A stretch of 59,747 nt of DNA, counting the filler, from Basidiobolus ranarum (taxonomy: Eukaryota), in the NCBI GenBank assembly GCA_040143965.1. It is 7 parts of 7 records of this genome, joined end to end, with 100 filler letters (N's around TTAATTAATTAA, not from the genome) between each part and the next. Parts side by side here need not be neighbours in the genome. Positions count along the whole stretch, not along the records: positions 34,237 to 42,681 come from JASJQH010000968.1; 6 more parts are not named here. One strand, written 5' to 3'. Of this stretch, positions 1,317 through 58,560 are shown piece by piece. Position 1 is the first letter of the stretch; each line of letters opens with the position of its first letter. The notes beneath the pieces are model-generated. The model saw nothing but the letters and a program-made list of their open reading frames with translations. It did no database searches and was not told the origin of the DNA. The translations under genes and the position numbers were made by a program.

Positions 1317-4300
1317 TTAATCGAACAACCAACCGAGATCGGTTTCTTCATTGTCAGGTCGTTGGGATTTGATGAATGAAAGTGGGACTACTTGGGCGGC
1401 ACGAGGTGCTGATGTTGGATCATAATTCTGTTTCTTTTTGAACCATTCGCCCTTGGAAGTCTAAAGAGAAGAAAGAATTTTCATGGAGATTAGTCATATA
1501 AATGGGTAAATGCGTACATAGAGAGGAGGATTCCTGAATTTAACTTACTCCAATAATATTCTGAAGGAAAGTTCGCATGAGAGCTTTTTGTGAGCGTGGA
1601 TCGGTTGTTGTTGCTAAGGAACTCTCGAATGTTTCTAACTTTGTTCTATTGACATCGGGTAATTTCGTGAAGGTTTCGTAGGGAATACTGGTGATACCAC
1701 GTAGGGTTATGTAAATCTCAACTACTAAAGATATGATATTGCTATGGCCTTCTTGGTGGTAACCATCATGTAATGCCTGTAATGCGGCCATTAAGAGATC
1801 TCCACCAACCAGTGAGTGTAGCTGAGGAAGTGGTTTGATAATAGGGACGATCTTTAAGCAGATATTGACGGTTCTTAAACAAGCCACTGTATCTTTGAAA
1901 GCGATCAGTTGAATCAAGGCTTGCATTAAAGGCTCAGCTACCGATGTCTTGAGCATGTATTCTTGTAGAATAGTGTATCGAGTGGAAAGAGACTCGTCAC
2001 TAGCATCAATGGGAATGAATATTCTGTTCCATAAATCAACATAAGACCGAGTGAAGTCCCGGAGGATTTTCTCGGTGACCATCTCATCCGAAACGTCTCC
2101 CTCCTCTAAATCATTCTCGAATGCTACAGCTTCCTCTGGAGTAGTCAACTGCAGACCTTTTTTGTACAAGGCTTGCCATTCGGTCTGAAGTCTATCATTA
2201 ATGAATCGAATCATGGATGGAAGGAACGAGTTAAAAGTAGCTTCAAGGCGTTCGGGAATGCAGTGAACAATTAACGGCCGAATCACCAAAGTGATCAGCG
2301 ACTTCCAGTGACGAGTTGATACATTGGACACACTTTCAAACAGTGAATTAACAAGGTATTCGTTGAGTGCGGGGATGTTGTAAAATCCGTTTTCAATGGT
2401 GGTCAGCATCCCCAAGACACTGTAGCTAGATTGTCTAATGTTACCAAACCAACTGGTATACACACTGGTGGCGTATTCAAGGCTTTGTGGAGCCAGAGCG
2501 TCATGACGTTTGGATGGAACACCGCCAATTAGTAAGGTCCGTTCGTTCGGGCTCATCTCCAAAACAGCCAATGCTTCTTGAGGGTAAGATTGCCAGTTTT
2601 GGGTGTTCCAAAGTCCATGCAGACACCTGATGAGTGAGAGCAAATTCGGAAGAATGTACTCCAAGTATGGGAACCAAAATTGATCCTCAGGGCTGGAAGA
2701 ACCTAGTTTTGCGTTCGGATCCAAAGTACGACGTAGGAAGAGAGATAATGCATTAATGGTGCGTAGTATTTTGGTACGGTTGTTTTGCGAAGGTTGTGTG
2801 TAGTCACGATCAAGAGAAGTGGAGGGACTGATGGAAGAATCGTTGTTCACCTTGGTTACGGCAGAGACATAGTCGTTGATACCAATGTACTGCATGAAGG
2901 CTGATTGAGATGCGATCGCATTCTGGATTTCTGGTGAGCACCATTCCTGCATAAAAGGATCCAAGACTGAGGTGAATATGCTCTTTTTTTGGTCAAGTGA
3001 AGAGGTAGAGTGGTGTCCAATCGCCAGAAGCCATTCAAATATGTAATTCTTCTCCGGAGGACGCAATCCATCCCCTTGTATTAGTGGCTGGACGGCCGAC
3101 ATTATATCCGAGAAGATTCCCATCAAAACGTCAGGTATAGTCACCCCTAACCTGACCAACGAAGTGGAGGCTTTGCGACGAAGTTGTAGAGTAGGTTCAC
3201 TTAATTTGTCCACATTTTCACCGTCCAGTTGAAAAGTAACAAAGGTGAAGATTTTCTGCAGAGCACTCATGAGACATGAGGAATCAACCTTCATCAACTT
3301 TCCAAAAACCACTATACCAGGTAGCTGACGAGTAACAATCAATGTATCAGGATACTGGAAATCAATCAGTTTAGTCAACAGCCCATTCATAGCCATTATT
3401 ACTTGCATCTGAGTCGCCTGTTGGTTCTCATCTTTAGGGTTAGAAATCACCTCCACCGATAAGCCACCCAACACTGATTCAAGCAGAGTCATATGGGCAT
3501 CAAATTGAATATAATATGGAGAGCGAGTGGTGCACATCCCTTGAGCGTTGCGATTTGAGGTATCCGCGGGTGCATCTAGGAAGGTAGAAACTTTCTCGTA
3601 CATCCAGGACAAGACATCCAATGGTTTAGAGACAACCATAAGCTTTAGTATATCTACCATTCTGGTACGTAGACCATCTTCAAATCCACGAAACTCGGTC
3701 TGTGTCTCAAAATCATCCGCAGCGTACCGTTGCGTGATCAAGCTAGGGAAGTCTTCTGTTGTTTCGACCTTGTGTAGGTGGCGGAATGTTAAGTTCAACA
3801 GGTATGGAAATTGTTCAATAACCGCCTCTTGTTTGCTGATGTAATCATGCTTTAGCGCGACGATCCAAAATTCGGTTATCATTGAGGATAAGAGGATGGA
3901 TTGGTTCTCCGAAAGAGTGTTGATCAAGGAAATATATTGCTTGAATTGCTTGGGTATCAGGGAGCTATTTTTCTTGAAGCATATATTGTTTACTCCCAGC
4001 ACAATTATTGTCTAAGTAGTACGAAAAGATTAGTTTCAATTTAGAGAACTCATCTATAAATAAAACTCACTTGAAACATTCTTTTCATAAAAAGGTACTC
4101 GTTGCTACCCAGGGGCTCGACATTTGCTTGATAAATTTTAGTATAAGCTGCAAAAATCAACTCTAAACCGCCTTCGTCTAGAACAGGCCAAATCACAGTT
4201 GACCTATCTTCAAACTGAGGAAAGTTACGACCAAAGACTATAAGAAGACACTCAACCGCTCCCATCCTGATTCCATGCGAGTCGAAACTGAGTAGAGTAC

Positions 4301-8472: not shown

Positions 8473-8572
8473 NNNNNNNNNNNNNNNNNNNNNNNNNNNN
8501 NNNNNNNNNNNNNNNNTTAATTAATTAANNNNNNNNNNNNNNNNNNNNNNNNNNNNNNNNNNNNNNNNNNNN
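8473..8572. other. Artificial contig linker
   Basis: N44-TTAATTAATTAA-N44. The 12-mer gives stops in all six frames. Confidence 0.98.
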
Positions 8573-9760
<1,188 letters not shown>

Positions 9761-10865: not shown

Positions 10866-12452
10866 ATGAGTAACTTTATCCGAAAGAAGTTAACACATTT
10901 CAAGGAGAACTTCACTCTCGCAGAGATCAGTGGTAGTTTGGGTGACTTGGGTACTCTTGTACCATTGATGGTCTCCCTCTCTCTCAATGGTCAGGTCTCC
11001 TTGACCTCTACCCTAATCTTCGGTGGGTTGTGGAACATAATCACCGGCCTCAAGTTCGGAATCCCCATGTGTGTCCAACCTATGAAAAGTAAGTGCCTCT
11101 CAATAGATTTACAATTGCTCATTATCACTGCCGACTTGAGCAACCTCCTCATCCCTTCACCCTTGTGTGTTATACCTCAAGTGTATTGATGAAGTGCTAC
11201 TAAATATCTATTCGAGTGTATCATGGCTAAACTTCTCCATCTTATTACTATAGCCATCGGAGCAATTGCCTTAGCAAGTAAGATGAGCATGGGCGAAATC
11301 ATGGGAGCTGGTATGTTTGTCAGTGGAGTGGTTCTGCTCCTTGGTTTGACACGTACAATCCACTTGGTCAATAAGTACACGCCTAGTGCGGTAGTGCGTG
11401 GTATTCAGATGGGTACCGGAATTACCTTGATGACAAAAGCAGGAACCGATCTTCTATTCAAGATCGATACACCTTGGGGTGGACCTGGATGGAAGTGGTA
11501 TGACAACTATGAATGGGCCATTGTGTGGTTCTGTGTTGTCTTCTTCCTCTACCATCAACGTCGCATCCCTACGGCTATGATCATCTTTGCCATCGGATTG
11601 ATCTTTGCGATCATTGTTGTGTACACCTCTAGCAACGTAACTCAGCCACCAGCACCTGGTTTCTACTACCCTAAGCCTATTGTCCCTACTCCAACCGAAT
11701 TTGTCAATGGTATGTTGAATGCGGGTCTGGGGCAACTCCCCCTCACAACACTGAACTCGGTAATCGCATTGGTAGCACTGATCCGAGAGTTATTCCCGGA
11801 GAACAAAACGACTACTGTGTCAGTGGCCACGTGCGTCGGCCTCATGAACCTGACTGGATGCTTCTTCGGAAGTATGCCATTCTGTCATGGCTCAGGTGGT
11901 TTGGCCGGTCAGTACAGATTCGGGGCTCGTACTGAGGTGAGTATCATATTCTTGGGACTGTGCAAGATGATTATTGGATTCGTACTTGGTGGTTCATTTC
12001 TCGGACTGCTCCAATACTTCCCCAAGTCATTCCTCGGTGTGATGCTCTTTGTCAGTGGGCTAGAGCTTGCCATGGCCGCCAGAAACTTCTGCAAGCCTAC
12101 CGACTCTCAAGCCACCAGAAACCGTAACTTCTTGGTTGTGTTGGTGTCGGGAGGTATGTTGATGACATTCAAGAATGACGGAGTTGGATTTGTGTCTGGA
12201 ATTGTGGCATACGTTTGCCTGTGGTTAGATGCACGTCGTCGTGGGGTTGAGTTCGAGAGAGATGGATCTACTGTTGACAATAAGAATAAAGAATGCGGTG
12301 ATGTAAAGGGTAGTGGACCATCCGTCATTGTTGAAGAGCCACCCAAGTTCCATAGTCAGCCTAATATTGATCATGAACTCAATGAAGCCTTTTCATCAGA
12401 AAAAGCTGAGGACCTGTCGCATGAATCTCAATTTCGCCATCACAAGCAATAA
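10866..12452 (+). CDS. Molybdate transporter, MOT1 family (intron 11089-11253)
   Basis: EISGSLGDLGTLVP, PMCVQPMK, GQLPLTTLNSVIA and MPFCHGSGGLAGQYRFGART are MOT1-family signatures; multiple transmembrane segments. Confidence 0.88.
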
Positions 12453-17033: not shown

Positions 17034-17133
17034 NNNNNNNNNNNNNNNNNNNNNNNNNNNNNNNNNNNNNNNNNNNNTTAATTAATTAANNNNNNNNNNN
17101 NNNNNNNNNNNNNNNNNNNNNNNNNNNNNNNNN
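17034..17133. other. Artificial contig linker
   Basis: N44-TTAATTAATTAA-N44. Confidence 0.98.
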
Positions 17134-25587: not shown

Positions 25588-25687
25588 NNNNNNNNNNNNN
25601 NNNNNNNNNNNNNNNNNNNNNNNNNNNNNNNTTAATTAATTAANNNNNNNNNNNNNNNNNNNNNNNNNNNNNNNNNNNNNNNNNNNN
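25588..25687. other. Artificial contig linker
   Basis: N44-TTAATTAATTAA-N44. Confidence 0.98.
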
Positions 25688-29999: not shown

Positions 30000-32900
30000 C
30001 AAGAATAGAGGACTTAATTGATGACCAGTCTAGCAATCCACTATTCACTTTGAAAGGCATCAACATGCCAGAAACTTACTCAAGTACTGATGAAGCATTA
30101 ATTAATTAACCAGCTGTGTTCCTTTACAGTAATAGTGCAAGTGAAGAGATTGTAATGCCTCAATTACATAGTAAATCAATAGTTGAGCAAAGTTCAAACA
30201 AAACATCATGAAGACCATCAACTTCCAAAATAGCTACTTTACTCACTTTTGAATCAACCTCCAGAGAACATTTGGAAAGATTTATTACAACAAGGAATTG
30301 CAGGCAGAACACTGTAATGATTTGTATTCAATCATAAGTAAAAACTACAAAGTTGCTATACAGGCCATGACAACCAGTAATGCCACACTATCGAATTAAT
30401 GTGGCATTTGGAAGCAACTAGTCAATAGTTAGAGAGTAACTCAACAATGATACAAGAGCTTCAGAATGCTGTACTTGAGCTATAGCAACATGCTGCTCTC
30501 TCCATCCATTCTCATATGCAATTTGAATCAACCCACGTCATATATATGAATGTAACTGTGATAATCTAGCAGAGCGGAATATGTGTTGGACTATTAAGCC
30601 TACACAACAGCCCAAATTGCTTAGGCTCATGAGAGTAGAAACTCATAGGAAAGCTGGCAAACCAAAAGACTCTGAATGTCAGAGCTGCCATCACTTGCTA
30701 TGATGCTCAGTGGTTGAACATTTTGGAAACTGTGTGAAATCATGCCCCAAATCACCTGGATTTGAGCCAATTGTGGGAAAATCAAAAACCAGGCATTACT
30801 CTGAAGGTTCTTAACTTATTTCATGTGGCTTATCCTGGGTAAGAAAAGCCACTAAAGAAGTACTCAAGGAGCAGGAAGCTAGTAAACCAAAGGGAAAAGC
30901 CAAGGAGCTTGTGAGTTTAGGCTCTACTGGCCCACTCACCAAATTCTTCGCACCTTTACAAAGATCTGCACTTCCAGAGTCAGATTTACTGGCAAAAAAG
31001 CTTAACCTGACTATAGTATCAGGTACACTGGTTGGAAGAGTGCTTAATTCAGAAGTTTATCCAAGACCTGGCTCCTCTCAACAAGCCAAAACACCAGCAA
31101 ATAAAACTCATAGCTCTCTAACCTCAGATAGTACTTTTCAAAGTGTTCAAATCAGCCCCAAGCTTAAAGGCAAGCAAAGAGCACCACAAACACTGCAAAG
31201 CACCCACAGTAGTGTCACACTACAATAATCTATGAAGATAATAAAAGTGCTAGAGGAGTATTTTCAAAAGTATGATGGGAAAAATGCAGTGCAAGTATGC
31301 GGAAAGTGGCTTCAGAAGAAGAACATTTGACTTGACATTCAGTCTGGTGTTGACCATGCAGATATCTGCAAAGAACTTAATACAGAGTAGCACAATATTA
31401 CAGGGTATCCACCAGGTAGCTGGAAGAATGTTGATTCAGCAATGTTAATACAATGGACTTGTTCCCTGCAACATTAATACAATGGTGGGATTTGATGGAG
31501 ATATTAATACAAACACATGTTGCATATGAGCTAAACCTTGGGTATGAAGAACTCTATAAAAATATTCAGGAGAATATATCAAAGAAACTGCGATTTTGAA
31601 GGTGGCAAATTAGCATTGAAGTAGTAAATGTGTAAAATTGGAGTACATTTTTTTCACAAGTGTTGATCCATAGTTTGCTGAGATTGTAGCTAATAATGTG
31701 CAACTATTTTACAAGAACTTGAAATTTCACTACTTCCAAAATTTTGCATGTGCAGTTAAATGAAGGTGTAGGTGGCATAAAGCAGTGCATGCCTAATGAT
31801 TTACAGATGCCTAGGTATCTACCATCAATTCTTGCTTGGATATATGTGAGTTAAGAATGAACTTGACAGAAGCTTGGGAAGGGGACATCAGACAAAAGTG
31901 AAAGCAACTTTCAACTCAGCTTTGGAGAGAATACTACATCTTGATGCCTTCAGAAGTCCACAAGAAGATATACAATAAGACTCATGAGGATTGAAAGCAT
32001 ATAATTGAGAAATAGGAATTTTGATTTTTAGTCTGTGAAGTCACAATTGCAATTACCTTTTTGCTTGTATGGACTGGAAGATACCTTTGCGGCCTCAGCT
32101 TTGGAGACAAAGGATGTTCTAGATAGATAGCTACTGCTGCTAATTAAGAATTTGCAGCACCTGCTGATGGAGATTGCCAAGTTCAAAACATTGTTTCAGG
32201 ACACTATGGCAAGAGTAATCAACAGAAGTTTAAAGGGAAAAGAAAGACAATTTGTTGATTCAAAAGATACTCCCAAAGGCAAATTGGACTAGTCCAGACC
32301 ATTGCACAGACATGCTAGATGACTCCAAATCAAAGAGACTGCTGACAAGATATCTATATCAGAAGAGGAATCTACACAACTCACCACTAGATTTGATGTA
32401 GCACCTCTAACAAGGGAAAGAGGCCAAGCAGTTAGTTCATCAGCTAGTACTGCACATCAACAGGAACACCAGCTTAGAAGAGGCTATGATGTTCCTCCCA
32501 TTTTATATGAAGAGCCAGCAATTGATGAAGAACCAGAGACAGGAGGGCCTGTATTCTCATGCTTCATTGAGCACAATTTACCAGATTTAACCAAACCAAT
32601 CAGTGAGCTTTTACATTGAAATAAGTGTAAGCTCCAAAGAGCATGCCACCAGACAGACATACTGGTTTAATGCACACTACTACACAACAGCAACAGAGGC
32701 TAACTGCAAGAATTATTGTACCTTGCACTTTGTTGGATGAAAATCTGACACCTGACCCAATCTATTAAGGCAGCAATCCATGACAATGCTTACCCCCACA
32801 AGACTAAGACATTGGGTGTTTGAGAGAGATAGTAAAGCTCTTACTGAGCTTGAAGAAGCCACTGCAGACAAACACAAAACTCAAGGTGGACAATATGTTC

Positions 32901-34136: not shown

Positions 34137-34236
34137 NNNNNNNNNNNNNNNNNNNNNNNNNNNNNNNNNNNNNNNNNNNNTTAATTAATTAANNNNNNNN
34201 NNNNNNNNNNNNNNNNNNNNNNNNNNNNNNNNNNNN
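34137..34236. other. Artificial contig linker
   Basis: N44-TTAATTAATTAA-N44. Confidence 0.98.
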
Positions 34237-34806
34237 GTATACTAGTGGAGAATTGTGACGCTTCTCAATTTCATCTACATGTGGGCCGTTGTGTCGCTTT
34301 TCAACACTGTCTATATGTGGACCATTGTGGCGCTTCTCTACATTAGCAATGTGTGGGCCGTTGTGTCGTTTCTCAATGCTGTTAACGTGTGGACCATTGT
34401 GACGCTTTTCAACATCGACGATATGAGGTCCATTATGACGCTTTTCAACATTAGCTATGTGAGGGCCGTTGTGTCGCTTTTCAACATTGATTACATGAGG
34501 ACCATTATGACGCTTCTCAACATTAGCTATGTGAGGTCCGTTGTGTCGCTTTTCAATACTGTTTACGTGCGGGCCATTGTGGCGTTTCTCTACATCAGCG
34601 ATATGTGGACCATTATGGCGTTTTTCAACGCTGTTAACATGTGGGCCATTGTGGCGTTTTTCCAAATCAGCAATTCTCACTCCATTGAACCTCTTTCCTC
34701 CAACAATTCTTCTTGGTAGAATTTGTGACTCGGCTTCCACACCAGTACCTGCTAAGGCTAATGAAACTAAAGCCAAGACAGTTAAGCTGAAAGAATTAAA
34801 ACGCAT
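34237..34806 (-). CDS. Secreted Kex2-processed repeat protein (KEP / peptide precursor), 3'-truncated
   Basis: Signal peptide MRFNSFSLTVLALVSLALA, pro-region ending in KR, then 11 complete 12-aa units HNGPH[IV]xx[VI]EKR, flanked by degenerate FNGVRIADLEKR and HNSPLVY at the contig edge. Confidence 0.9.
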
Positions 34807-34938
34807 ATTGTTGTGAGGTTGCTAAAAAGATTATGAGATATTTTGGGATTGAAAAGATATCTTCACTTGATGAGTAAGATTGGAGTTTTTGAAGTAATTG
34901 AAAGGTGAACTGATTTAAAAGTTTCTTCCAGCTCATCA

Positions 34939-34947
34939 CTTTATATA
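34939..34947 (-). promoter_or_regulatory. Candidate TATA box of the KEP gene
   Basis: TATATAAAG on the minus strand about 135 nt upstream of the ATG at 34806. Confidence 0.45.
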
Positions 34948-35589
34948 GTGATGGAAAGGTCTTTGAGTGGAGCCTACATATCCTTGTAGAAGTGGTACAG
35001 TAGCCATCGATTCAATTCAATCGATGTCTGCGTGTTTTTATTGTTGACCACGAGTTGATTGAGACTTTACTCTCTTATGCAGCTCCTGTCACAACCCCTA
35101 GTTTTTGATGTCGATCATGTATATATAATTCTACCTAAATACTACTGTAAACACCTTGCACATCTTACATATGAGTTGGTATGGGACTTGTTACAGTACC
35201 CACCGAAATCTGCAGTAGCAATAACACTTGATTTATTCGTAGTATTATTCAAGCCAAGCTTATCCATAGTTCATGTATCCCAAGAGGAAAGCAATATGTA
35301 AATTTGCGAATCCAGTCATAGTGACGATTATTACGTGTCAGAAAGGAGAATTACCATTCTATAAGAGTAACATTGAAAGGTAAATTACCAAGTGACCTGT
35401 TATTGCGTCAATGAGCGTAGTAACATAAATTTTCAATCAACTGATAGGTTAATTCGTTCCCTTTTTTGGTTCTTTTTCGATCCCTTTTATTACTTTATTG
35501 TTCATAGAAAACATACCAAGCATAGAAAAGAGACAAATTCAATCAACTCGAACTCAACCATGGGATCGGGTTGGTTTCAGCCGAAGCGT

Positions 35590-36141
35590 TCACTCAAATC
35601 GAACGTCCGTAAGTCCATAGTATACGTCGTCCCACGGATATACCCAAGAGTAGGCTGGCCCTTTACTGTAATAGAGAACATAGTGAGTATCAAGAAGGTT
35701 GTCTTTGAAAGCAACCATAGTTAAGTTACCTAAGCACATTTCCGTATACTGCAATGAAATATCCCGTCTTCATCTCCTTCGTAAATACGGGTACTCTCCA
35801 GGGAATTTTATATTTTAGGCCTTCGGCTTTGATCGAATTGGTGTGTCCAATGGTGGCAATTTTACGGGAGGATCCCGCCTGAATGGTATTAAGGGACCAG
35901 AGTTCAGCGGTAAAGCTCATGAAACCCATATCCTTTGGTATTTTCCAAACCACGTCGATTTTCTGACCCATCTTCAACGTCTCACCTTGCTTCGGGTTCA
36001 AGATGGTGACGATCTATGCAGAGATTAATAGTGAGAACAACCAACAAAGTAGAGATTTTAACGAACCTTTCGATCTTGGCAAGACACCACGCATAGGGTA
36101 AACAGTAGGAACGTCAAGTGGAAAAGGCCTGTAAACTTCAT
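35590..36141 (-). CDS. Small secreted beta-rich protein, possibly a Kre9/Knh1 N-terminal Ig-like fold (3 exons)
   Basis: Spliced: MKFTGLFHLTFLLFTLCVVSCQDRK|IVTILNPKQGETLKMGQKIDVVWK...YKIPWRVP..GYFIAVYGNVLS|KGPAYSWVYPWDDVYYGLTDVRFE. Signal peptide plus a P..G.....G....V.W pattern. Confidence 0.65.
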
Positions 36142-36588
36142 ATTGCTCTGACCTTCACCTCTCTTGCTGCACCCTTTTATACGTTCCACTCATGGCCTTG
36201 GCTAGAATCCGCTGATCATTGCTGTTTATTTGGCTTTGGATTGTCATGGATGACTCTCTGAAACTTACAAACACGTTCACGTCATAAGATACATCCTATT
36301 TTGGAGATTCACTTTAACGTAAATTTATAAATACCTGCCATGACCCGACATAGACGAATCCACCAATAATTTTTCATTTAGCCTTCGGAATAGATATTGT
36401 GGGGGAAGGTCAAGTCATGAAAATTTTTCTCTTTCACAATAAGTAGATTCCTAATCGAGGGTCCCTACAGAATCTAGTTAAAATTTGGGGGGTAGGGTAG
36501 GGAAGTGAAATATTTCATGATAAGTTGAGATAAAGAAGTTTCTTGTATCTAGTCAACCTCTACATTCTATTGACACACTTCCACAAAC

Positions 36589-36981
36589 ATGAGTGACTAC
36601 GCCAGTGATTTTTCCATGCCTTCCAGCGGTGCCGGTAAGAAGCAACAAGTTATGGAGCAAGTTAGAAGTGAGTTAGCTTTAGCTAATGCTCAAGAACTTA
36701 TCAACGTAAGTCCATATATTTCCACTTGGTTATTCCCGTTTTATTGAACTGGTTTCTTTGAGTTAAAAATATTCCTTTACTTATTATTATGGTTTATGTA
36801 GAAAATGAACGATAAATGTTTCGCCAAGTGTGTTCCCAAGCCTGGTTCTCGTCTTGATAATGGTGAACAAGCATGCATCTCCAAATGTATGGATCGTTAC
36901 ATGGAGGCCTGGAATACTGTTTCTCGTGCTTACATTTCACGTGTTCAACGTGAATCTCAAAACATGCAAGGTTCTCTTTAA
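36589..36981 (+). CDS. TIM13: Mitochondrial small Tim chaperone Tim13 (intron 36706-36801)
   Basis: Not in the ORF track. VMEQVRSELALANAQELIN|KMNDKCFAKCVPKPGSRLDNGEQACISKCMDRYMEAWNTVSRAY has the twin CX3C motif. Confidence 0.95.
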
Positions 36982-37464
36982 TTCATCCACTTCAAGTGAC
37001 ATAAGCAATAAACACATTTCATTAGATTGGTTAAGTGAAGTTTCTTTCTTACTTTCTTTCCTCTTTGAAAGCTCAGAATTTCTTACTATGATTTCCCGAA
37101 TATGTTATACCAAACCAATGGTACTTTATGTTTGAATATTCGTAACGATATTGGCTCTATGTTCACTTGAAATACCTAATTTGATATAGGTGAACTAACT
37201 GGTATATTTAGTAGTTTATCTTGAATAAGAGAAGTTTTCTTTCGGAATATATTCCAATCGTTTCATGAATATTACCTTGAATCTAAAAATTCACTCAATT
37301 TTTATAACTGCGATGATACTATCATGATATAGAAGTGAGCTAATACCACTCTGTAGAGATAGAAACAGTAGTTAGTCATGGTGAATTCAGTAGATTCAAA
37401 TTTGTATCAAAGTCAAAAAGTAATTTTAATGATCTAGCTATTGTGACTATGGTAGAGTACTTTT

Positions 37465-37745
37465 TGTTGAGAATGACTTAGTTTAAGCACATATATAGTC
37501 CTATAGTTAGCTACCTAAATTTCATTGCAATTATTTAATATCTTCATTTACTGAAAATATTAAGACAAACTAGGAAGTTCTCAAACTTGTCCAAGAGACC
37601 AAAAACTTTGTACTCTACATGTTAGTTTGTCTACTTCTTGACAAAAGTATCAATATTAACATAAACTCAATAAATCATCAAGTAACAACCACCAAGTCTT
37701 CTGGTTCTCCAAGTCACTTCCAACAACTCCCAAAATACTTCAACA
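37465..37745 (+). mobile_element. Diverged LTR related to family A
   Basis: TGTTGAG...TTCAACA termini; reverse-complement similarity to the gggagcctgttggaagtg..ttggtggtt..gatttattgag segment. Confidence 0.6.
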
Positions 37746-37781
37746 CTCTAACCATTCGAGTTTACATTCAATTCAATTAGG

Positions 37782-37868
37782 AATTTCAGTATTTAATTAC
37801 TATTTAGATAGGTTCTTCATATATTTCAGTATTTAGTTACTATTTATATAGGTTCTTCATATATTTCA
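37782..37868. repeat. Short tandem duplication (~40-bp unit, 2 copies)
   Basis: atttcagtattta.ttactattta.ataggttcttcatat occurs twice. Confidence 0.8.
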
Positions 37869-38247
37869 ATTTATAACTGTGATATATGAATATAGAGAAC
37901 TGCTTGGTGTTAGAAAAACTTATGTCTTCTGTCAATAGTTTGTGTATATGCTGAAGAACAAACATGTGCTTAATATAAGATGGTTTAATGAACCAGACAT
38001 ACAAACGAGACATTTACAAGATATAGACGGGTGATTACAGGTGGGTTAAGGGGATGGTGGTTGACCTAGCAACATATCCAAGGAGAGATAGCATAAGAAG
38101 GGAAGCAGTCATCTCGGGAATTTCCAAATCAGTGAGTATATAACAGCGGGATCTATTTCAAGTGTGCCAAGGGAATTGTGAATTATGCTCAAAGAATGAC
38201 AGCAATGGAAGAAGTATCAGAAACGCCCACCCATCAACCATATCCAA

Positions 38248-39259
38248 TCAAGGATCCAGACCTGACGTGGATTCAAGTTGGCTTGGACTCCTAGTGGCTA
38301 ATTGTCTCTAAGATAAAATCGGAATAAGCATGGAAAAGTGAGGTGGCTACTGGTCACTTACTACCTTCTTGTAACGTGCTTTTGTATTTTTCACTTTTAC
38401 ACTCACTATTTTCACCAGTTCGTCCACTAGGTCACTTTTTAGCACGTGGGGGAAATGAAGTTGTGCAAAATTATCCCAAGTCGGTGAATCATAGATGCCA
38501 AATTTCTTCATAGTAGATATAGCTAACAATCCAAAAAATTCTTTGGTAAGAATAACATCTGACTCTACCAACATTAGTGAAACAAACATCACTCTACCTC
38601 CGACATGGTTGTTAACATTTGTAAAAGTAGAGGCATTTTTTTCGATATGACTCATCGCACTAGCGGCAAATTGTCTCAACAATACCTTGACCTTAGCGTT
38701 TTCCTCCGAAGGTAGTTGTGATACTAGAAGATAAGATCCAACTAATGAATCAGTTGGGGAACAACTTTCCTAGTCAATAAAATGGGAATATTTAAGTACC
38801 GGGAGTGGTTGGTGAAAGTGCATTTATTATACTATCAGAGTCGGTTCGATGCTTTGTAGAGCTATCCGGGACCTGTCGCCTCACAGGAGTTTGTATTATG
38901 GCCTCGTATGGTTGTCCGTCGTTAGCTAAGGAGTTTGGCGGAGGTTTTTGTGAAGAAGTTAAAAGTTCGTTTAGATTAGCTTCAATGCCAGACAATCTAG
39001 CGTGTAAAAGATTTGCCGGAGACATTCTCAAGGCGGTTTCAAGTTTCTCTTCTATTCCGTCGAGACGCTCGTGCAAACTTCTAAAGTCAACTGCAATCTG
39101 AGAGAGTAAATTATTTTGAATTTCCTCTAAATAATGCCTTAAATGTAATGGTGTATCCACCAAGTTTCCAGTACGCATATCAAAATAATGTCCGGCATTA
39201 CCAGTCAAGGAGGATTCCCCAACAAGTGACTCTGGTTGATGATGTTCTCCAAAGTCCAT
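38248..39259 (-). CDS. Hypothetical protein: N-terminal coiled coil, Pro/Ser linker, C-terminal helical basic domain (3 exons)
   Basis: ORFs 38792-39259 and 38347-38682 plus a short last exon joined by GT-AG introns; heptads FRSLHERLDGIEEKLETAL; basic end IVSVKVKNTKARYKK. Confidence 0.65.
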
Positions 39260-40817
39260 GAAGTAACAGACTAACAGAGCAAAGTGAAGCTTATTTGAGA
39301 TATCAAAGCGGCTGAGCAGTTACAGTTCAAAAAGCCATGAATATCCTGTGGTGGCTGGCATGGTTTTCTGGCCTTGCTTGGATACCCTATACAGGGCCCT
39401 AGTTTATGGTAACTTGAACAAGAACTGGCCTTTTTTGTTGATAGACTCTGTTCGGGTACAACTCAATCAATTCAGCGATTCAAGTAATTGATTGAGTTGA
39501 TGAGATAAAATAAGGGAATGTTTTTCTCTGCGTCATTTAGTAGGTGATTTCAGGATTACTTCGAGGTGGCTTAGGAACTTGAACGAGTTTGTTTGAATTT
39601 AAATATCGCCATCAGTGAAACTAGCAGAGCAGAGCTATTCGTAGACTTTTCATTTTTGATTGGTTCTGGGTTGAAGTACTGAAGGAATAATTGAAATGTT
39701 ATAATGGTGAATTAAATATCGACATCGATTCAATTGTGTCACAATTCGGATTCAGCCTTTTGCTTTAGCGGTATTTCGTTTGATTCATTAAATATCGACA
39801 AATAGCAAAATATCCCAATCCATTTCCACAGCCATTTATTTTCTACAACGCCACCCTTACATATAAAACCAGCTGAAGAGGATACTCGGCACAAGCCTTG
39901 AACCAATGACTGTTCAGGATATACAGTAGCTATAGTAATGCTCAAGTATATACACATATGCGCATTCATTCGACCTCGTTACTTATTCAAGTCGTATGGT
40001 CTAATTGGAGATGAAACAGATTAATTCCTGGAGGGAGGAGAGTATATCCGAATACTCTCTCCTACACCAGTTACACCATTTTAATAATGTAAATTTCTGG
40101 TCTCCTTTGAGTCAGTAAATGAAGCTGATGATAAAACTGTACCTGATATTGTGTGATCAAAATACACGTCCACATGGGGATAGTGTATGGCTCCAGCATC
40201 CGCGTGCCTCGTTAATGGTAAACTGGCAGTTATTAAAGTAAGGATATCAAGGAGTTATTTGCATCTGCTTTCTCACTTAGATGTGAGGGTACCTTGGAAG
40301 TCATTTCAATTTAATTAGATAGTTGGATGTTTGCTACAATCATGGCTAGGGCTAGTATAGCAAGTGGTATCACCAGAAACCACCAATTTGAGGTATACGC
40401 AGATAGATAACTCCCTAATAAGTTGCGTAATGTATGTGGCACATGGTTTATAATGTTGGAAATACAACTTGTAATCCTAATGACTATTTGGCTTTGCCCG
40501 GATACCAGGATTTGATGTCCAGAATCAGTGCTGCTATGTTACAATAAGTTACATGGAGTACCATTGTATCCAGGTTCTTTTGCGACTGACTTGTAATACT
40601 AAAGCCATACAGTACTCTCTAAATGTATCAACACGCTGCTTTGAACACTTAAATATATCGATTTTGCCAGGTATAAACTGATCTGGTCAAAAATTGGAAT
40701 GTTTATTGGCAGAAGAATGATCTTTCCTATTTGTTATTTTTAAAATGGGGAAGCTTGCTTTGAATTATTTGGAATTTTCTAAACAGCCAACATTTGATAT
40801 CCTACTAGTGGATATTC

Positions 40818-41157
40818 TATTAAAGTATTTTGGGAGTTGTTATAAACAATTTAGTGAACTAGAACAATGGATGATTTTCACTTAATGATTCATTGAGTGT
40901 GACATTTGTACTTCTGTTAAGAAGTAGATAAACCATAATGTAGAATATGTTCCGGATGGTCTGAAGAACATGTGTACAATGCTTGGAGTCTCTTCAACAA
41001 GTTCGAGAAAATTAAAAGATCTGAGTACTCCCAAGTGGATCTCAATATTGTTACTAAATTTCCATTAAGAATAGCGGGTGATAACTTAGTGAAATACAAA
41101 TAACTAAACATTAAGCTATATTTGGCTATAGGTGCTTAGGCAATGCTAATTTCAACG
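40818..41157 (-). mobile_element. Diverged solo LTR, family A
   Basis: ttaaagtattttgggag start and ggcaatgctaatttcaac end match 7786-8133. Confidence 0.7.
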
Positions 41158-41652
41158 CAAGTAAATTACAAGTGGATATGGAATAATATGCCGGTAATAT
41201 TTTAATGTTTTACTTTATGACTCTATAGATGTTGAAGGTATGTGCTTTTTGAAATATTCATCATCTTCTATTCAAAGTTATTGAACTACTTAAAAAATCT
41301 CTTCTTAAGGACTGGTGAATAAATATTTCTCTTTGTATTCTCAATCATATATAGGAACTTAAAATTCTTTTTTAAACTCTAACTTTGAAATTAGTGGCTC
41401 TGTGTCTTCCTGTTTCCCTTAAACTTTAGTATATGAATAAAAAGTCAACAGTGCCACTTCTCAATTGCAAAAAGCAAATTTCAGCTACTTCAACTCATAA
41501 GGGAGCATTCTGCTTTCCAGATACTACTTATAGACAACTTGTTGCAAATGAAAAATCACCATAAAGCCTGAAAGAACTTGTTTAAACATAGTAAATAAGT
41601 AAATAGCAACATCCTAAATGGCAAATAACATCTTGTCCCCTAACAAAAATAA

Positions 41653-42681
41653 AATCAATTTGAACCAGATTGGATCTACCCTTCTGGATTGCCAAACCAT
41701 CAGAGAATTGTCATAATATTGGTGGTTTGAATTCTGCCAGGGATTTTGATGGTGAGATGGTGGCTTCTTGATGGTATTTCAATGGTTTTCATACATGGTA
41801 AAGTAGTGATCCTTATATTTGACATGCATTATTTATTTTCCGACAATTTTTGCAAAAACTAATTTTTTAATGGCAAATTACTGGGTTTACTGCCATAGGA
41901 ATTTGAATGAATATGCATGTCTTAATTTAGATATTTTAGGCTTAGTATGCCAGCCATAAGGAGAATCAAACAATAAAAGAATCTTGTTGTGCTTAGTCTC
42001 TACATATGCACATACTTGACTGATCACACATAACTTAACAATATCAATATGCTGTACCAGCAAACTAATGGTAGAAAAATTGCCAAATATCTGAAATTTT
42101 GAATAGCACTGACACTTGGCAAATAGCTGACTCTTGTTACCATGCACAATGAGAATAAGCTCTTGGATTTTGGCAAAATTCTGTAAAGAATTCAGCTATA
42201 ATATCCCCAACTTGCAGTCAACACATGTCCTGCCACAAATAGATGTGTTATTGCTTGAATAGATTACCCCATGGCCAAAATGTTAATACTGCATATCATG
42301 ATCTATCTTGCCAAGAAATCTGTCTTGCAGCTTTCCAAGAAATACCATCAGATTATCACACAAACAAATTAGTCCAAATTATAGAGGTACTTACTCTGTG
42401 TCCATGGATTGGGTTTTGTTGCTGTTATTCAGCTAAAACAATGCAAAAACCCATGAGCACATTGAAAAGAGCCCTTTGTTGTAAGTTTAATACACTCTGA
42501 AGTCTCCTTAACCCATTGCATTACATCCATCACTGATTTGGCTGATACATTATTGATCAGATTAGCATACAGTAATACTGACAATTTCACACAGAGCATC
42601 ATTTCACCACAGATGCACTCCATTGAGAACTCCCAGAATGTATAGCAAGGGCCTATAATCTCTAAGCATTGTGAAAGATGC
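41653..42681 (-). mobile_element. Second copy of the CACTA-like transposase relic (3' part)
   Basis: Colinear with about 26876-27890 over ~1 kb with frequent substitutions. Confidence 0.8.
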
Positions 42682-42781
42682 NNNNNNNNNNNNNNNNNNN
42701 NNNNNNNNNNNNNNNNNNNNNNNNNTTAATTAATTAANNNNNNNNNNNNNNNNNNNNNNNNNNNNNNNNNNNNNNNNNNNN
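42682..42781. other. Artificial contig linker
   Basis: N44-TTAATTAATTAA-N44. Confidence 0.98.
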
Positions 42782-47297: not shown

Positions 47298-49717
47298 ATG
47301 TCCAGCTTTGATGACTCTCAAAATCCTTCGCTGGAGAGTGGCCCTCCGAGAAGACGTAAAGTCACTAGAGCGTGTGACACCTGCAGAAGAAAAAAAGTTC
47401 GATGTGATGGAGAGAAGCCTATCTGTTCATATTGTATTTCCTTTGGATATGAATGTACATATCTTGATTTTCTGAAGAAAAGAGGTCCTAGGGGAAATTG
47501 CTCTGTCGGACTTGAGAAGCGTATTAAGAGACTAGAATCCGTGTTGTTTAACCTGAAGGACAAAGATCCCCAACTCTATCAACAAATATGTTCTGTTGAC
47601 ATGCCAGAGAATACGAACACTACACGTGGTGGCTCTTTGAATGAAAAGCTGGGTCATGATGAGGTACGCTTTAATTATTATTAGCATCAACTTTTTTACG
47701 GTTGCTTGCCAGTCAAACTTGTTTGATTGGCTTTCCATAAGTGGATAGTACAGTTTGGACTGATAAACGTAACATGTTTCTCAACTACTCTTTCTATCTG
47801 CTGTAGTTAGAATTGGCCGGCAACAATAGTGACGGTTCGTCAGAGGATATGTATACCCTGGAAAGAGCTATTGGTGAGCTCACTACCAATGAGAAAGACC
47901 AGTGCAGATATCTTGGCCCCAGCTCTGGTGCGTACCTTTTTGAGAGCGGTTCATTTTATAAACGAGGGATCTTTAGAGACTTTTCCATGCTTACCGAAAT
48001 CAAGTCAGATTTAAAGATGAATTACCCAAGAACAAGTGAGGATTTTGATTATGTTTGCGATATAAGCACAGATTTTCCGCCGCCAGATGTCCGAAAGCAT
48101 CTATTGAGCATATATTTTGCCCATCATCATCCATATTTCCCAATTTTTCACAAAAAGTGGTTTCTCAACAGGCTTGCTTCAGGAGAAAAAGTCTCTGGCG
48201 CCCTTTTGAACGCGATTTTTGCTGTTGCTTGTCTTAATTCAGGAAATCTCACTATGTATCAGAAGCCTACAAGCTCCGGAATTACGGGGGATGTTTTTTT
48301 CCACAGAGCCAAGAAATTCTTGGACACTGAGTGGTATGCTTCCTCTGTAGATAACGTCCAGGCCTTAATACTCTTGTCATTTCACCCTACTCATTCTTGG
48401 CATTTCCTTGGAAATGCAATTCGAATGGCTCAAGATCTTGGTTTGCATCGAAACTTATTAGACAAAGGTGGGGCAAATGATATTGAAAAAGAAAATCGTC
48501 GAAGAGCTTGGTGGGGGTGTTATGTCCTTGATAGAATATGTAGCTGCGGAGCAGGTAGGTCAATGTCGATTGACGAGGCGGATTATGATACGATTCTGAA
48601 ATTCTATGAGGAGGAACATACACAGCCTGAGTCAGAAGATGAGGATACTTCTATTTCGTTGAAGTACTTTGTTCAGCTGATCACGCTTAGCACTTTACTA
48701 GGCAAGGTTCTGAAAGCGATATATCCTGTTCGAAACACTTCAGCACTGAGTAGTGAAGATGTGTTGTGGATTTTAAATAAGTCCCTAAATCATTGGTATT
48801 CCAGCTTACCCACTGAATTTCAGCTGAGTTATACCAATTTACCAACAAGCTACAATACCTACTCAAGTATATTGAATGCTATGTATCATTGGGTAATGAT
48901 CTGTCTACATCGACCGTTTATCCCTCTTCCCACCAGCCAATTCGATTCGAACCCGCCCTCTCTCAATGTCTGCAACCATTCAGCTAGTATCATCAACTAT
49001 ATATTTCATATTACGCCGTGGCAGTTCATGATGCATGGGGTATTTCTACTATGGTATCCATATTCACACGCCTCTATGGTGTTCGTGGTTAGCATATTTT
49101 CGAAGGATTCACAAGTTGCCAACTCAACATTAGTGAATCTATCAACATACATGCACAGAGTAGAGAAGCTTAAGCCGGCAGTACACCAAGTAAATAAGAT
49201 GTTTATTTTCTTGGAGGATCTTTTACATTCGCGAGAAGTAAAGTTGTTAGAAGATCCTTCTTTGCGCCCAATCATCATTCCACTTGATCAGAATTCCTTT
49301 TCGAAGCCTGGTGGAGCACGATTTTCGCGGCGTTCCGATTCGGAAGCAATGGTTATCTATGCCGAAAAGACGGCACCCATTTCGCGTCCACAGGCCCCCT
49401 TTGAAACGTATCCAGCATCAAGCATCAGTGCTGCTCATATCAACGTAAGTGTATCTCCCACTAGTGAAGTTGAGGCTGAACAAGGTCCAATGGACATATT
49501 CCGTAACCAAGCTTGGAATCACAACCTATTCCCCACCAGTCCTCCGATATCCAATCCGTCTATTACTGTAGCCCATCAACCTTTTGATAGCTCAGGGGGG
49601 GCTGCAGCATTTGCAAATCCCGCCTACTGGAGCGGTAATGTCGAGTCTGAATTACAACAGTGGAACAGCTATATTAGTCAGTATACAATGGACAACTCAT
49701 TTCCATCAACAAAGTAG
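47298..49717 (+). CDS. Zn(II)2Cys6 transcription factor with fungal-specific middle homology region (one intron)
   Basis: ACDTCRRKKVRCDGEKPICSYCISFGYECTY; YLGPSSG; YFAHHHPYFPIFHK; AIRMAQDLGLHR; RRRAWWGCYVLDR; ICLHRPF. Confidence 0.95.
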
Positions 49718-51218: not shown

Positions 51219-51318
51219 NNNNNNNNNNNNNNNNNNNNNNNNNNNNNNNNNNNNNNNNNNNNTTAATTAATTAANNNNNNNNNNNNNNNNNNNNNNNNNN
51301 NNNNNNNNNNNNNNNNNN
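51219..51318. other. Artificial contig linker
   Basis: N44-TTAATTAATTAA-N44. Confidence 0.98.
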
Positions 51319-53546: not shown

Positions 53547-55782
53547 TTACACTTCCAATATCTGGCCTTCAATTAATTTCTTAAAAGGTCCCTGATGAGA
53601 AACCAACTTCTCATAAGTGTCCATTTCTGCGATTTGTCCATTCTCAAGACAGATCACAACGTCCGAATTCTTGAGCGTAGAAAGACGATGAGCAATGGTA
53701 ATGACGGTACGATTACGAGTTAGTCGATCCAAAGCCTCTTGAACCAACTTCTCATTCTCACTATCCAAGGCACTGGTGGCTTCATCCAGAATCAACAAGA
53801 TCGGATCACACAAAAGTGCTCTAGCAATAGCGATTCTATCGAGGAATCATGCAAAGTTAATAAAAAAGTACAAACTAATCGTCATTATAATCTAACTACC
53901 TTTGTTTTTGACCGCCACTTAAAGCAACACCTCGTTCTCCAACGTAAGTATCTAAACCCTCTGGGAATTCTTCGATGAACCCACAATTGGCAATTTTAGC
54001 AGCTTCCTCAATCTCTACATCTAGAGCCTCTGGTTTCCCGTAGCGGATATTTTCTCTAATAGTGTTGGCAAAGAGAACTGGCTCTTGACTAACTATGGCA
54101 ATTTGGTTATGCCACCAATGAAGTTCTAAATCTTTCAGGTCTACTCCATCGATCTTCACGGCACCATTGATAGGATCATAGAAACGTAATAGAAGTGAGC
54201 CAATAGTGGTTTTACCAGCACCTGACGCCCCAGCGATAGCAAGAACGGAGTGTGCATTTAAAGTGAAGCTAAGTTGTTTGAATACTTGATTGTCAGGGCG
54301 AGTAGGATAAGCAAAATCGACATTCTCAAATTCAATTTTCCCCTTAAGCTCAGGAATGGTTTGTTGACCGTTTACCAAATTATCAGGTTTACGATCCAGT
54401 AATTGGAAGAGCCTAGTACAAGCACTCAAGCCTTTCATAGTTTCTGCAAAGAATGAAGCCAGTCCCATCATGGAATAGCCAGCATAGGCAGTATATATGA
54501 GGAAAGAAGATAACGCTCCGACCGATATCTCATTATCAAGAACCATGGTACCTCCCATGGATAATACCGCCAAAACAGTCAAGTTACCTGACATACCAGC
54601 AACACCATAAAAGATTCCACTAGCATAAGCCTCTTTTTTTGCCAACTTTAGAATGCTGTTGACTTGGCTTTCGTAGAATTGAGCCTCCACCTCTTCTTTG
54701 GTAAAAGCACGAACGGTACGTATATTACTGATACGTTCTTCAGCGGTCACATTGATATCACTTAGAGCATCTTGAGTTGAGCGTGAAAGTTTTTTAACTC
54801 GTCTACCGTACATGGCTGCTCCAACAGCAAATGGCGGGACAACTCCCATCATGGTCAACGAAAGTTTAGGAGAAATATATACCATCATGCCGAAGCCTAC
54901 AATGGCTGAGGCTAAACTTCTCAATCCATCAGAGAGATTGTTAGTCACAGTTTTAGCCGCTACAGTAGTATCTAAAGTCAATCGACTGACTAGATCAGAA
55001 CTACGCGTAGCATCGAAGAATGCTATTTCTTGGCTCATGATACTACGATAAAGTTTGGTACGAAGACGACCTGTGATTCGTTCGTTAGCCAGCTTCATTG
55101 TTACCACGCGACCAAAATTGGCAAATCCACCCAGCACAAACACACCAGCAAGCGCAGTGAAGAATTGATTTGGTGTCATATCAAGAGGAGCAGCACTTTT
55201 TTTCGTAACTACATCGACAATGCGACCTATAAGATATGGAACGGACTGTTGAAAATGCTTAACTCTTTGACCAAAATAATTATCGATATTTTCAAATGAT
55301 ACATACCATAGTAATGGCAGAAGAGGTACACAAGCATAATGCACCGGCTAATTTATAAAATATATCAGCATATACCAGTCAAAAAGAGTACCGGATTACT
55401 GTCACTTACCGAGCAATTTTGGAATATCTGGACTAGAAAGAGCTAGTAGTTTACTTAAACCGCCTTTTTTTCTCTTTTCTTTTACCACTTTGGTGATTTC
55501 GTCATTATCCTTAGTTTTTTGGCGCTCCAATTGCAATACTTGATTCCAAAAATCAACTTTCTCATTTATATCTAGAACACCAGGAAGTGTAACCAAACTT
55601 CTATATGACATAGACTCTACGGTCGTAGATAAAGTGCGGAGACCAATTCCAAGTTGACTTGACCGAAGACGGTTCAACGAGGCATGTGGTAAACGTCTTA
55701 ATTGTTGTGAAGCAGTTCGACAACTGTGTGCACTCTGGCATGATAGAGGGATAGTACGCTTTGAAGCGTTCAAGTGATACAT
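53547..55782 (-). CDS. MDL1: Mitochondrial ABC half-transporter, Mdl1/ABCB10-like (multi-exon)
   Basis: Presequence-like N-terminus, ABCB transmembrane domain ([21 protein letters not shown]), Walker [11 protein letters not shown]-loop [26 protein letters not shown] and IAHRLST. Confidence 0.92.
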
Positions 55783-57336: not shown

Positions 57337-58560
57337 ATGGTCACTTTCTCTCCTGACTTTTGGGCTCCTGCTATGGATTCCAATGTCCGTCGCAGAGCTG
57401 AGCCCGGACTCTTTGGTGATACACCGGTGACACGCAGTGAGAAAATCCCTGTCCCCAAGACAACACCTAGCAATGTTCTTTCACTTCCTCTTCCTGAGCC
57501 CGATAATGATAACACATACTCGGATGATTCTGACTCTGAGCAAAACAAAAAGAATATCTTACAACGATTCTTCAATTCTCCCCCACCCTCAGAAAGTGGA
57601 GACAGTAAGCGTGCTAGTGTTAAACGCGACAACGTTCTCAGCAAGAAATACATATGCGATAAAGGTTGTATTGGACGTGGTGCTACTGCTGTTGTCCGTC
57701 TTGCTTACAAGATCGATTCTACAGATAAGGAGAAAATGTATGCAGTGAAGTCCTTTCGTCGTCGTAGAAAGGACGAAGGAGAGCGTGAATATGTGAAGAA
57801 ACTAACTTCTGAATTTTGTATCTCTTCTTCTTTACATCACACCAACGTAGTTGAAACCGTAGATCTTGTAATGGATGATAACGAACAGTGGTGTGAGGTT
57901 ATGGAGTTCTGCCCTGGTGGTGATTTGTATAACGTCATTAAAAGTGGCAGTATGTCAACTATTGAAATCAACTGCTGCTTCAAGCAACTTATTCAAGGTG
58001 TTGCTTATTTGCACTCTATGGGTGTTGCTCATCGTGATATCAAGCCGGAAAATCTACTTCTTGACAACAGAGGTCACTTAAAAATTACGGATTTTGGAGT
58101 TTCCGATGTGTTTAGAATGTGCTGGGAACGTCAAGCCCATCTATCTCGTGGTATATGCGGTTCTGAACCATATATAGCTCCAGAAGCATTTACAAGTAAA
58201 GAGTATGATGCTCGTGAAGTTGATATCTGGGCTTGTGGTATTGTTTACTATGCTATGACATATCATGGTATTCCTTTCCGTACGGCTACGAAGAATGACC
58301 CCAACTATAAAAACTTTTTGGAGCTTCGACGCCTTGGTTCCTACGAACCACTTAACAAACTACCTGATGGATGTCGTGAGCTTTTTATGTCTATACTGGA
58401 GCCCAATCCCGCCGAGCGGATCACAATGGAAGCTATTCTGGAAAATGAGTGGTTCAAAAGTATTGAAGTTTGCGACAACTGTGAATCCTCCGAAGGTCAC
58501 CATCGTCATTTCACAGAAGAAATGGAGTTAAAACGAAATATGAGTGTTAAGAGATACTGA
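57337..58560 (+). CDS. Ser/Thr protein kinase, fungal NPR/HAL family (Hrk1/Sat4-like)
   Basis: IGRGATAVV, YAVK, family-typical EYVKKLTSEFCISSSLHHTNVVETVDL, HRDIKPEN, DFG and GSEPYIAPE. Confidence 0.93.
   Translation: MVTFSPDFWAPAMDSNVRRRAEPGLFGDTPVTRSEKIPVPKTTPSNVLSLPLPEPDNDNTYSDDSDSEQNKKNILQRFFNSPPPSESGDSKRASVKRDNVLSKKYICDKGCIGRGATAVVRLAYKIDSTDKEKMYAVKSFRRRRKDEGEREYVKKLTSEFCISSSLHHTNVVETVDLVMDDNEQWCEVMEFCPGGDLYNVIKSGSMSTIEINCCFKQLIQGVAYLHSMGVAHRDIKPENLLLDNRGHLKITDFGVSDVFRMCWERQAHLSRGICGSEPYIAPEAFTSKEYDAREVDIWACGIVYYAMTYHGIPFRTATKNDPNYKNFLELRRLGSYEPLNKLPDGCRELFMSILEPNPAERITMEAILENEWFKSIEVCDNCESSEGHHRHFTEEMELKRNMSVKRY

Follow-up and report, generated by a model that had tools for sequence, protein, structure and literature searches.

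The partial coding sequence at positions 34237-34806 (minus strand) of the window, the 59,747-nt stretch of Basidiobolus ranarum DNA that was analyzed as a whole, probably represents a genuine fungal protein-coding gene for a Kex2-processed repeat protein (KEP), cut short on its 3' side where a draft contig stops. Its frame runs open for 570 nt, or 190 codons, from the ATG at 34806-34804 to the last base before an artificial linker (34237), and contains no stop; it is the only open frame on the gene strand, as the other two are closed by 14 and 21 stops. The window consists of seven draft contigs of 8.43-8.47 kb, arranged by decreasing size and separated by six artificial 100-nt linkers (8473-8572, 17034-17133, 25588-25687, 34137-34236, 42682-42781 and 51219-51318), each composed of N's, TTAATTAATTAA and again N's. 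Because draft contigs are joined in this manner, the 3' end of the gene is missing. The linker next to the gene (34137-34236; an N run, TTAATTAATTAA and a second N run) leads into an unrelated contig, and genes on the two sides of any linker are not neighbors in the genome. A further copy of TTAATTAATTAA, at 30098-30109, is devoid of flanking N's and is native sequence.

All parts of the precursor lie on the minus strand and were read off the translation. On inspection, the signal-peptide-like N-terminus (aa 1-19, 34750-34806) combines a basic n-region (MR) with a hydrophobic core of 15 residues (aa 5-19; mean Kyte-Doolittle value 2.17) and an A-x-A site ahead of G20. It is followed by a short pro-region (aa 20-39, 34690-34749) with dibasic sites at RR32-33 and KR38-39. 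Next comes FNGVRIADLEKR (aa 40-51, 34654-34689), a degenerate first unit that is identical to a true unit in eight of its 12 residues. Eleven complete 36-nt units encoding HNGPH[IV]xx[VI]EKR occupy aa 52-183 (34258-34653), and the start of a further, divergent unit, HNSPLVY, abuts the contig end (34237-34257). Eight distinct peptide variants are found among the eleven complete units, with IANV present three times and VNSI twice. The EKR sites, 12 in the whole precursor, are spaced by 12 residues, and in the array (aa 52-183) serine and threonine together make up 3% of the residues while W, Y, F, C and M are absent. Tandem Repeats Finder reported a 36-nt period with 10.8 copies (34274-34662), as well as higher-order periods of 72 and 108 nt. 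In the 919 nt upstream of the gene, a scan for motifs identified a TATA-box-like TATATAA (34941-34947, minus strand) at -141 from the ATG, and a CCAAT at -77. No second copy of the gene was found elsewhere in the window by tblastn.

The elements named in the preliminary description, namely a signal peptide, a short pro-region, 11 complete 36-nt units and HNSPLVY, were all seen on the translation. Cutting the latter at the units returned the eight variants that had been claimed, IANVE occurring three times, and the array is indeed cut at the contig edge, with the frame open up to the artificial linker. The degenerate twelfth unit FNGVRIADLEKR and the two dibasic sites of the pro-region go beyond that description.

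The distribution of nucleotide differences among the eleven copies was examined codon by codon. Eight of the 12 residues of the unit are invariant, and the codon of each of these varies at its third base. Of 36 columns, 18 are variable (12 in third, four in first and two in second codon positions), and within the eight invariant-residue codons the variable columns are third positions exclusively. At least 11 changes are needed in these codons, all of them synonymous (P about 6.5e-8, according to a simple model that counts 38 synonymous changes among the 171 single changes that can occur). The codon pairs and triplets listed earlier (CAC/CAT, AAT/AAC, GGC/GGT/GGA, CCA/CCG/CCT) were all recovered, and the accompanying claim that selection acts on the peptide rather than on the DNA repeat is borne out by invariant residues with synonymous-only variation. 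Since the residues are fixed while the third bases vary, the array is coding sequence, with selection acting on the peptide. Purifying selection on the peptide was in this way shown, as were the gene itself and the anatomy of its repeats. The units display a mean pairwise nucleotide identity of 73%, and those that encode the same peptide differ by two to six bases.

These figures also bear on another explanation, according to which the array does not code for protein and is satellite DNA, or an artefact of the assembly, with one frame left open by chance. The repeat does stand at a contig end, the least reliable part of assemblies, and neither a homologue nor a transcript is in hand. Nevertheless, the confinement of variation to third positions in eight codons, an ATG and a signal-like leader that share the frame of the array, the TATA-like box upstream, and a DNA identity between copies that is unlike that of a collapsed or chimeric repeat render this explanation barely credible.

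The architecture of the precursor was compared with the definitions used in two KEP surveys. Le Marquer et al. (2019, PMC6339444) called for a signal peptide, at least three similar fragments after cutting at KR or RR, and repeats that cover at least 15% of the length, and Umemura (2020, PMC7329392) for a signal peptide and three or more tandem repeats, each 8 aa or longer and set between dibasic sites. In the present case the leader was recognized as a signal peptide by inspection (SignalP was used in both surveys), 11 complete units and one degenerate unit of 12 aa each end in KR, and the repeats account for 132 of the 190 visible residues of a 3'-incomplete protein. A signal-like leader followed by many short KR-ended cores, which is the KEP architecture proposed in the preliminary description, thus agrees with both definitions. 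As in the KEPs described in these surveys, a signal peptide is combined with a compact array of similar, short, KR-bounded cores, and a repeat number of 11-12 with a core size of 10 aa corresponds to the commonest KEP class. The precursor differs from the surveyed KEPs in its core, HNGPH[IV]xx[VI]E, which appears in the main text of neither survey, and in that its gene is incomplete here.

That the precursor is secreted, cleaved and trimmed is predicted from the translated sequence, as is any role of its products. The signal peptide would take the precursor into the endoplasmic reticulum, where the leader would be removed; a Kex2-type subtilase of the late Golgi would then cut after every KR, and also after RR33 and KR39, and a Kex1-type carboxypeptidase would trim the trailing Lys-Arg. 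Such a Kex2-then-Kex1 pathway is described as established for precursors of this kind (PMC6339444). The expected secreted output is at least 11 linear, hydrophilic and anionic decapeptides, HNGPH[IV]xx[VI]E, the eight variants of which have predicted masses of 1087-1146 Da, pI values of 4.9-6.0 and net charges of -1 to -3; IVGG and FNGVRIADLE would be released as by-products. As a His-Asn start is not an X-Ala/X-Pro substrate of Ste13, the N-terminal histidine should stay in place.

Cleavage of the precursor being a prediction from sequence, a different scenario is that the repeat protein is secreted and remains intact, serving in a wall, an adhesive or a coat, and that its KR sites are incidental. 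The phmmer search described below yielded many unrelated 12-residue repeats that end in dibasic residues and are clearly not peptide precursors, as this scenario would have it. We consider it very unlikely, however, as E-K-R is invariant at all 12 sites despite codon variation, and as the protein is free of hydrophobic or Cys-rich modules. The unrelated period-12 proteins, moreover, are mostly long and not of the signal-peptide-plus-array type, with the reservation that one of them, P0028, has a signal-like start. No N-glycosylation sequon was found in the 190 visible residues and, together with the very low Ser/Thr content, this disfavors a wall glycoprotein.

Searches for relatives of the precursor were conducted at several levels. 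Pfam, with E values up to 10, returned sub-threshold noise only (APC_u13, Sp38 and EXOSC1). Word-indexed searches of a 5.8-billion-protein index produced 1423 word-sharing candidates of near length, none at E<=0.01, and 1666 of longer length, among which there was no homologue. An exhaustive phmmer search against 1.84 billion representatives yielded 103 matches at E<=1e-3. The HNGPH motif was absent from all 103, as well as from every match of the protein searches. Regularly spaced dibasic sites were found in 14 of the 103; the six of these that were inspected are unrelated period-12/13 repeats, all within larger proteins except for the 234-aa P0091, and P0028, one of the six, begins with a hydrophobic, signal-like stretch. 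Among the 12 of the 103 matches that were inspected, P0062 alone resembles the precursor. In two other proteins, P0045 and P0056, KRHLGP motifs are repeated at irregular spacing, with no tandem array of the HNGPH type; P0056 resembles a precursor from which another organism would release several peptides, and apart from KRH-x-GP neither appears to bear a clear relation to the HNGPH gene. A cluster look-up gave no names for P0062, P0056 or P0045. In JGI metagenome contigs, a pattern scan flagged 54 stretches, none of which was confirmed by tblastn, and a degenerate DNA pattern for EKRHNGPH hit three loci, all single chance matches without a repeat. In the Atlas feature search, in which scores below 0.9 are leads only, all precursor matches fell below that value, the best (0.87) being to an unnamed 52-member ascomycete cluster; unnamed fungal clusters took the leading ranks.

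The sole candidate relative is P0062, a 173-aa singleton from an ENA assembly. Like the precursor, it has a signal-like leader and a degenerate first unit followed by repeat units, five in this case, most of them QKDGPQIIDVE[KR]R, and the core common to both proteins is GP-x-I-x-D-V-E-K-R. It was matched by phmmer at E 2.3e-5, with 48% identity over the matched stretch, and by BLASTP with 41% identity. The two differ in period, 13 in P0062 versus 12 in the precursor, and P0062 carries Gln at both positions at which the precursor has His1 and His5. In the non-repeat parts of the two proteins no significant similarity is seen, as the observed local score was reached by 125 of 2000 shuffles. A profile built from the precursor (P0001) and P0062 gave 3160 candidates in the 5.8-billion-protein index, with P0062 itself as the sole match. 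Homology of P0062 to the HNGPH precursor may be regarded as a lead, and these searches revealed no convincing homologue.

The motif had been reported as unrecognized, and so it remained: it was absent from the protein-search matches and from the main texts of the two KEP surveys (PMC6339444, PMC7329392), and within the literature searched it occurs in two unrelated papers. The high novelty that this seemed to imply was not sustained. KEPs occur in nearly all fungi and are extremely diverse. Umemura counted 7878 of them in 1345 of 1461 strains, and 2560 of the 7878 likewise have no homologue (PMC7329392). With orphan KEPs in the thousands, one more that has a core motif of its own is nothing out of the ordinary; the HNGPH core motif is new as far as these searches reach, and the precursor design is common in fungi.

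The same architecture is shared by the alpha-type mating pheromone precursors of ascomycetes, and the precursor could in principle be one of these. Its likeness to MF-alpha-1 of Saccharomyces cerevisiae and to ascomycete alpha precursors lies in the pre-pro-repeat design and in the expected Kex2-then-Kex1 processing, and its 10-residue cores fall within the 9-24 aa class given for alpha pheromones by Le Marquer et al. (PMC6339444). An MF_alpha cluster was the fourth match in the Atlas search, a lead only with its score of 0.80. The precursor also begins with MRF, and an MRF start is typical of many yeast MF-alpha precursors. It nevertheless matched neither Pfam MF_alpha nor MF_alpha_N, at E values up to 10, and the cores lack Trp, a Cys pair, PYGxPxG, a GQP-type motif or any aromatic residue. 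The X-Ala/X-Pro signature of Ste13 (as given in PMC6339444) does not follow KR, where the cores start with His-Asn. Unlike MF-alpha-1 and its ascomycete counterparts, the HNGPH precursor lacks the Pfam domain, the Ste13 spacer and the aromatic/Cys signature, and it has many variants, eight among eleven copies, with anionic and hydrophilic peptides. Membership in the alpha-pheromone family was rejected on the Pfam families and on the Ste13 and core signatures alike (0 W/Y/F/C in the array), and we consider a pheromone precursor of this type highly improbable.

An additional scenario is that of a RiPP precursor, the cores of which would undergo cyclization or other tailoring by the products of genes on the missing flank. 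A DUF3328 gene lies near 22% of KEP genes, at a mean distance of about three genes, and histidine motifs are reported for some DUF3328-linked KEP types (PMC7329392). The contig that carries the gene spans 34237-42681 with the precursor at its low-coordinate end, and the flank that can be seen is hence one side only, 7.9 kb upstream or about 2-3 genes. On that side, no tailoring enzyme (DUF3328/UstY or tyrosinase) and no Pfam family at all was found in the 12 of 16 other contig ORFs (at least 70 aa, stop-to-stop) that were scanned, apart from one noise row at E 0.14, in line with the earlier statement that none is visible on the contig; the remaining four ORFs comprise a pair on the plus strand overlapping the repeat, one antisense to 38792-39319 and one that runs into the linker. 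The histidine motif of PMC7329392, furthermore, is HH and not HxxxH.

The composition of the cores argues in the same direction. In dikaritins the crosslinked residues are Tyr, Trp and Phe, and an aromatic residue in the core is required. The HNGPH cores contain none of the three (aa 52-183), and a dikaritin (ustiloxin-type) precursor was rejected on this account. Precursors of the ustiloxin, phomopsin and asperipin type resemble the HNGPH precursor in being KEP-type with many short cores (PMC7329392); they need a core aromatic and nearby DUF3328/UstY genes, whereas neither was seen in the HNGPH cores or on the one flank available. A tailored RiPP is unlikely in our estimate, and the absence of aromatic residues and Cys disfavors both dikaritin-type cross-linking and the known alpha-pheromone signatures.

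The nearest upstream neighbor of the KEP gene is a two-exon gene at 35726-36141 (minus strand). Its exons, 36141-36067 and 36013-35726, are separated by a 53-nt intron (GTTCGT..TAG), and TATAAAAG lies upstream of the gene. The product, of roughly 120 aa, has a signal-like leader and matched no Pfam family with E values up to 1. As this neighbor is also signal-led, two small secreted-protein genes stand head to tail. Farther upstream, two adjoining open stretches of 175 and 140 aa (38347-39319, minus strand), with no Pfam match, probably form a single intron-split gene; the Atlas leads for this ORF were sub-threshold and within chance range, the best (0.80) being to a viral p24 cluster. The rest of the contig (39400-42681, about 3 kb) contains short ORFs only, without family matches, has a G+C content of 31-34%, and could be intergenic or consist of degenerate repeat. 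Over the window as a whole, 2-kb segments have G+C contents of about 31-44%, and no tRNA genes were found in it.

The contig of the precursor carries no taxon-diagnostic gene, and it is from its companions in the record that a fungal origin was concluded; the 53-nt GT..AG intron of the neighboring gene also counts in favor of a fungus. The other contigs hold ordinary housekeeping and regulatory genes that mark the record as fungal: an exportin-5 family gene (1540-3882, minus), a DEAD-box helicase (8657-9760, plus), a MOT1-type molybdate transporter (11223-12452, plus), a Fungal_trans transcription factor (PF04082, E 1.2e-38; 47849-49717, plus), an ABC transporter (53896-55179, minus) and a protein kinase (57337-58560, plus).

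A special case of the KEP reading is that the decapeptides are secreted binders of Cu, Ni or Zn, which they would coordinate through the amine and imidazole of His1, through His5 and through C-terminal carboxylates. The preliminary description had suggested such a chelator, of a histidine-brace-like kind. All 11 units retain both His1 and His5, and each peptide closes with an acidic residue; for short peptides with an N-terminal His, histamine-like binding of Cu(II) has been reported (PMC2267047). The sole candidate relative, P0062, has Gln in place of both histidines, and two His per ten residues are a modest ligand set in comparison with known metallophores. An ATCUN motif consists of a free N-terminus with His at position 3. 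This pattern is absent, His being at positions 1 and 5, and an ATCUN-type Cu/Ni-binding peptide was rejected. The 919 nt upstream contain no Mac1, Zap1, Aft1 or SreA-type consensus, a weak test, as these motifs are yeast and Aspergillus consensus sequences and may not be those of the host. In the literature searched, no paper joining Kex2 with metallophores was found, and the idea would thus be new. Metal binding by the HNGPH peptides is chemically plausible and, judged from these sequence features, slightly weakened; as an account of what the peptides do, it seems quite unlikely.

Peptides of similar size, linear and KEP-derived, were detected by LC-MS/MS in Coprinopsis and in edible mushrooms by Vogt et al. 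(2022, PMC9769878), who describe no visible phenotype for kep knock-outs and suggest roles in biotic interactions. The products of KEP 497993 of Coprinopsis cinerea and of related agaricomycete KEPs are, like those predicted here, short, linear, hydrophilic and acidic (PMC9769878). They were detected in culture supernatant; their cores start with Gln, are pyroglutamated and are conserved in at least 13 species (PMC9769878), while the first residue of the HNGPH cores is His and no homologue of these is confirmed. Most likely, the HNGPH peptides would act outside the cell as diffusible molecules, unmodified or minimally modified, in signaling or in interaction with other organisms. A role as mating pheromone, membrane-active toxin or wall polymer is unlikely, a membrane-active peptide being disfavored because the cores are anionic and non-amphipathic.

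Among the molecules that fungi secrete, KEP-derived peptides are a large class that has hardly been explored, and to our knowledge only a handful have a known role, among them pheromones, ustiloxin-type toxins, candidalysin and repellents. There is a small chance that the HNGPH peptides would turn out to be the first Kex2-released fungal metal binders, or a new family of extracellular signals with a receptor of its own. Should metal binding prove true, one gene would give rise to a dozen small secreted Cu/Ni/Zn ligands that are ribosomally made. On present evidence the gene raises no new question, orphan KEPs being known in the thousands. It does add a well-supported KEP precursor, with unusually clear selection on the peptide and a motif not seen elsewhere, and constitutes a reasonable candidate for peptidomics.
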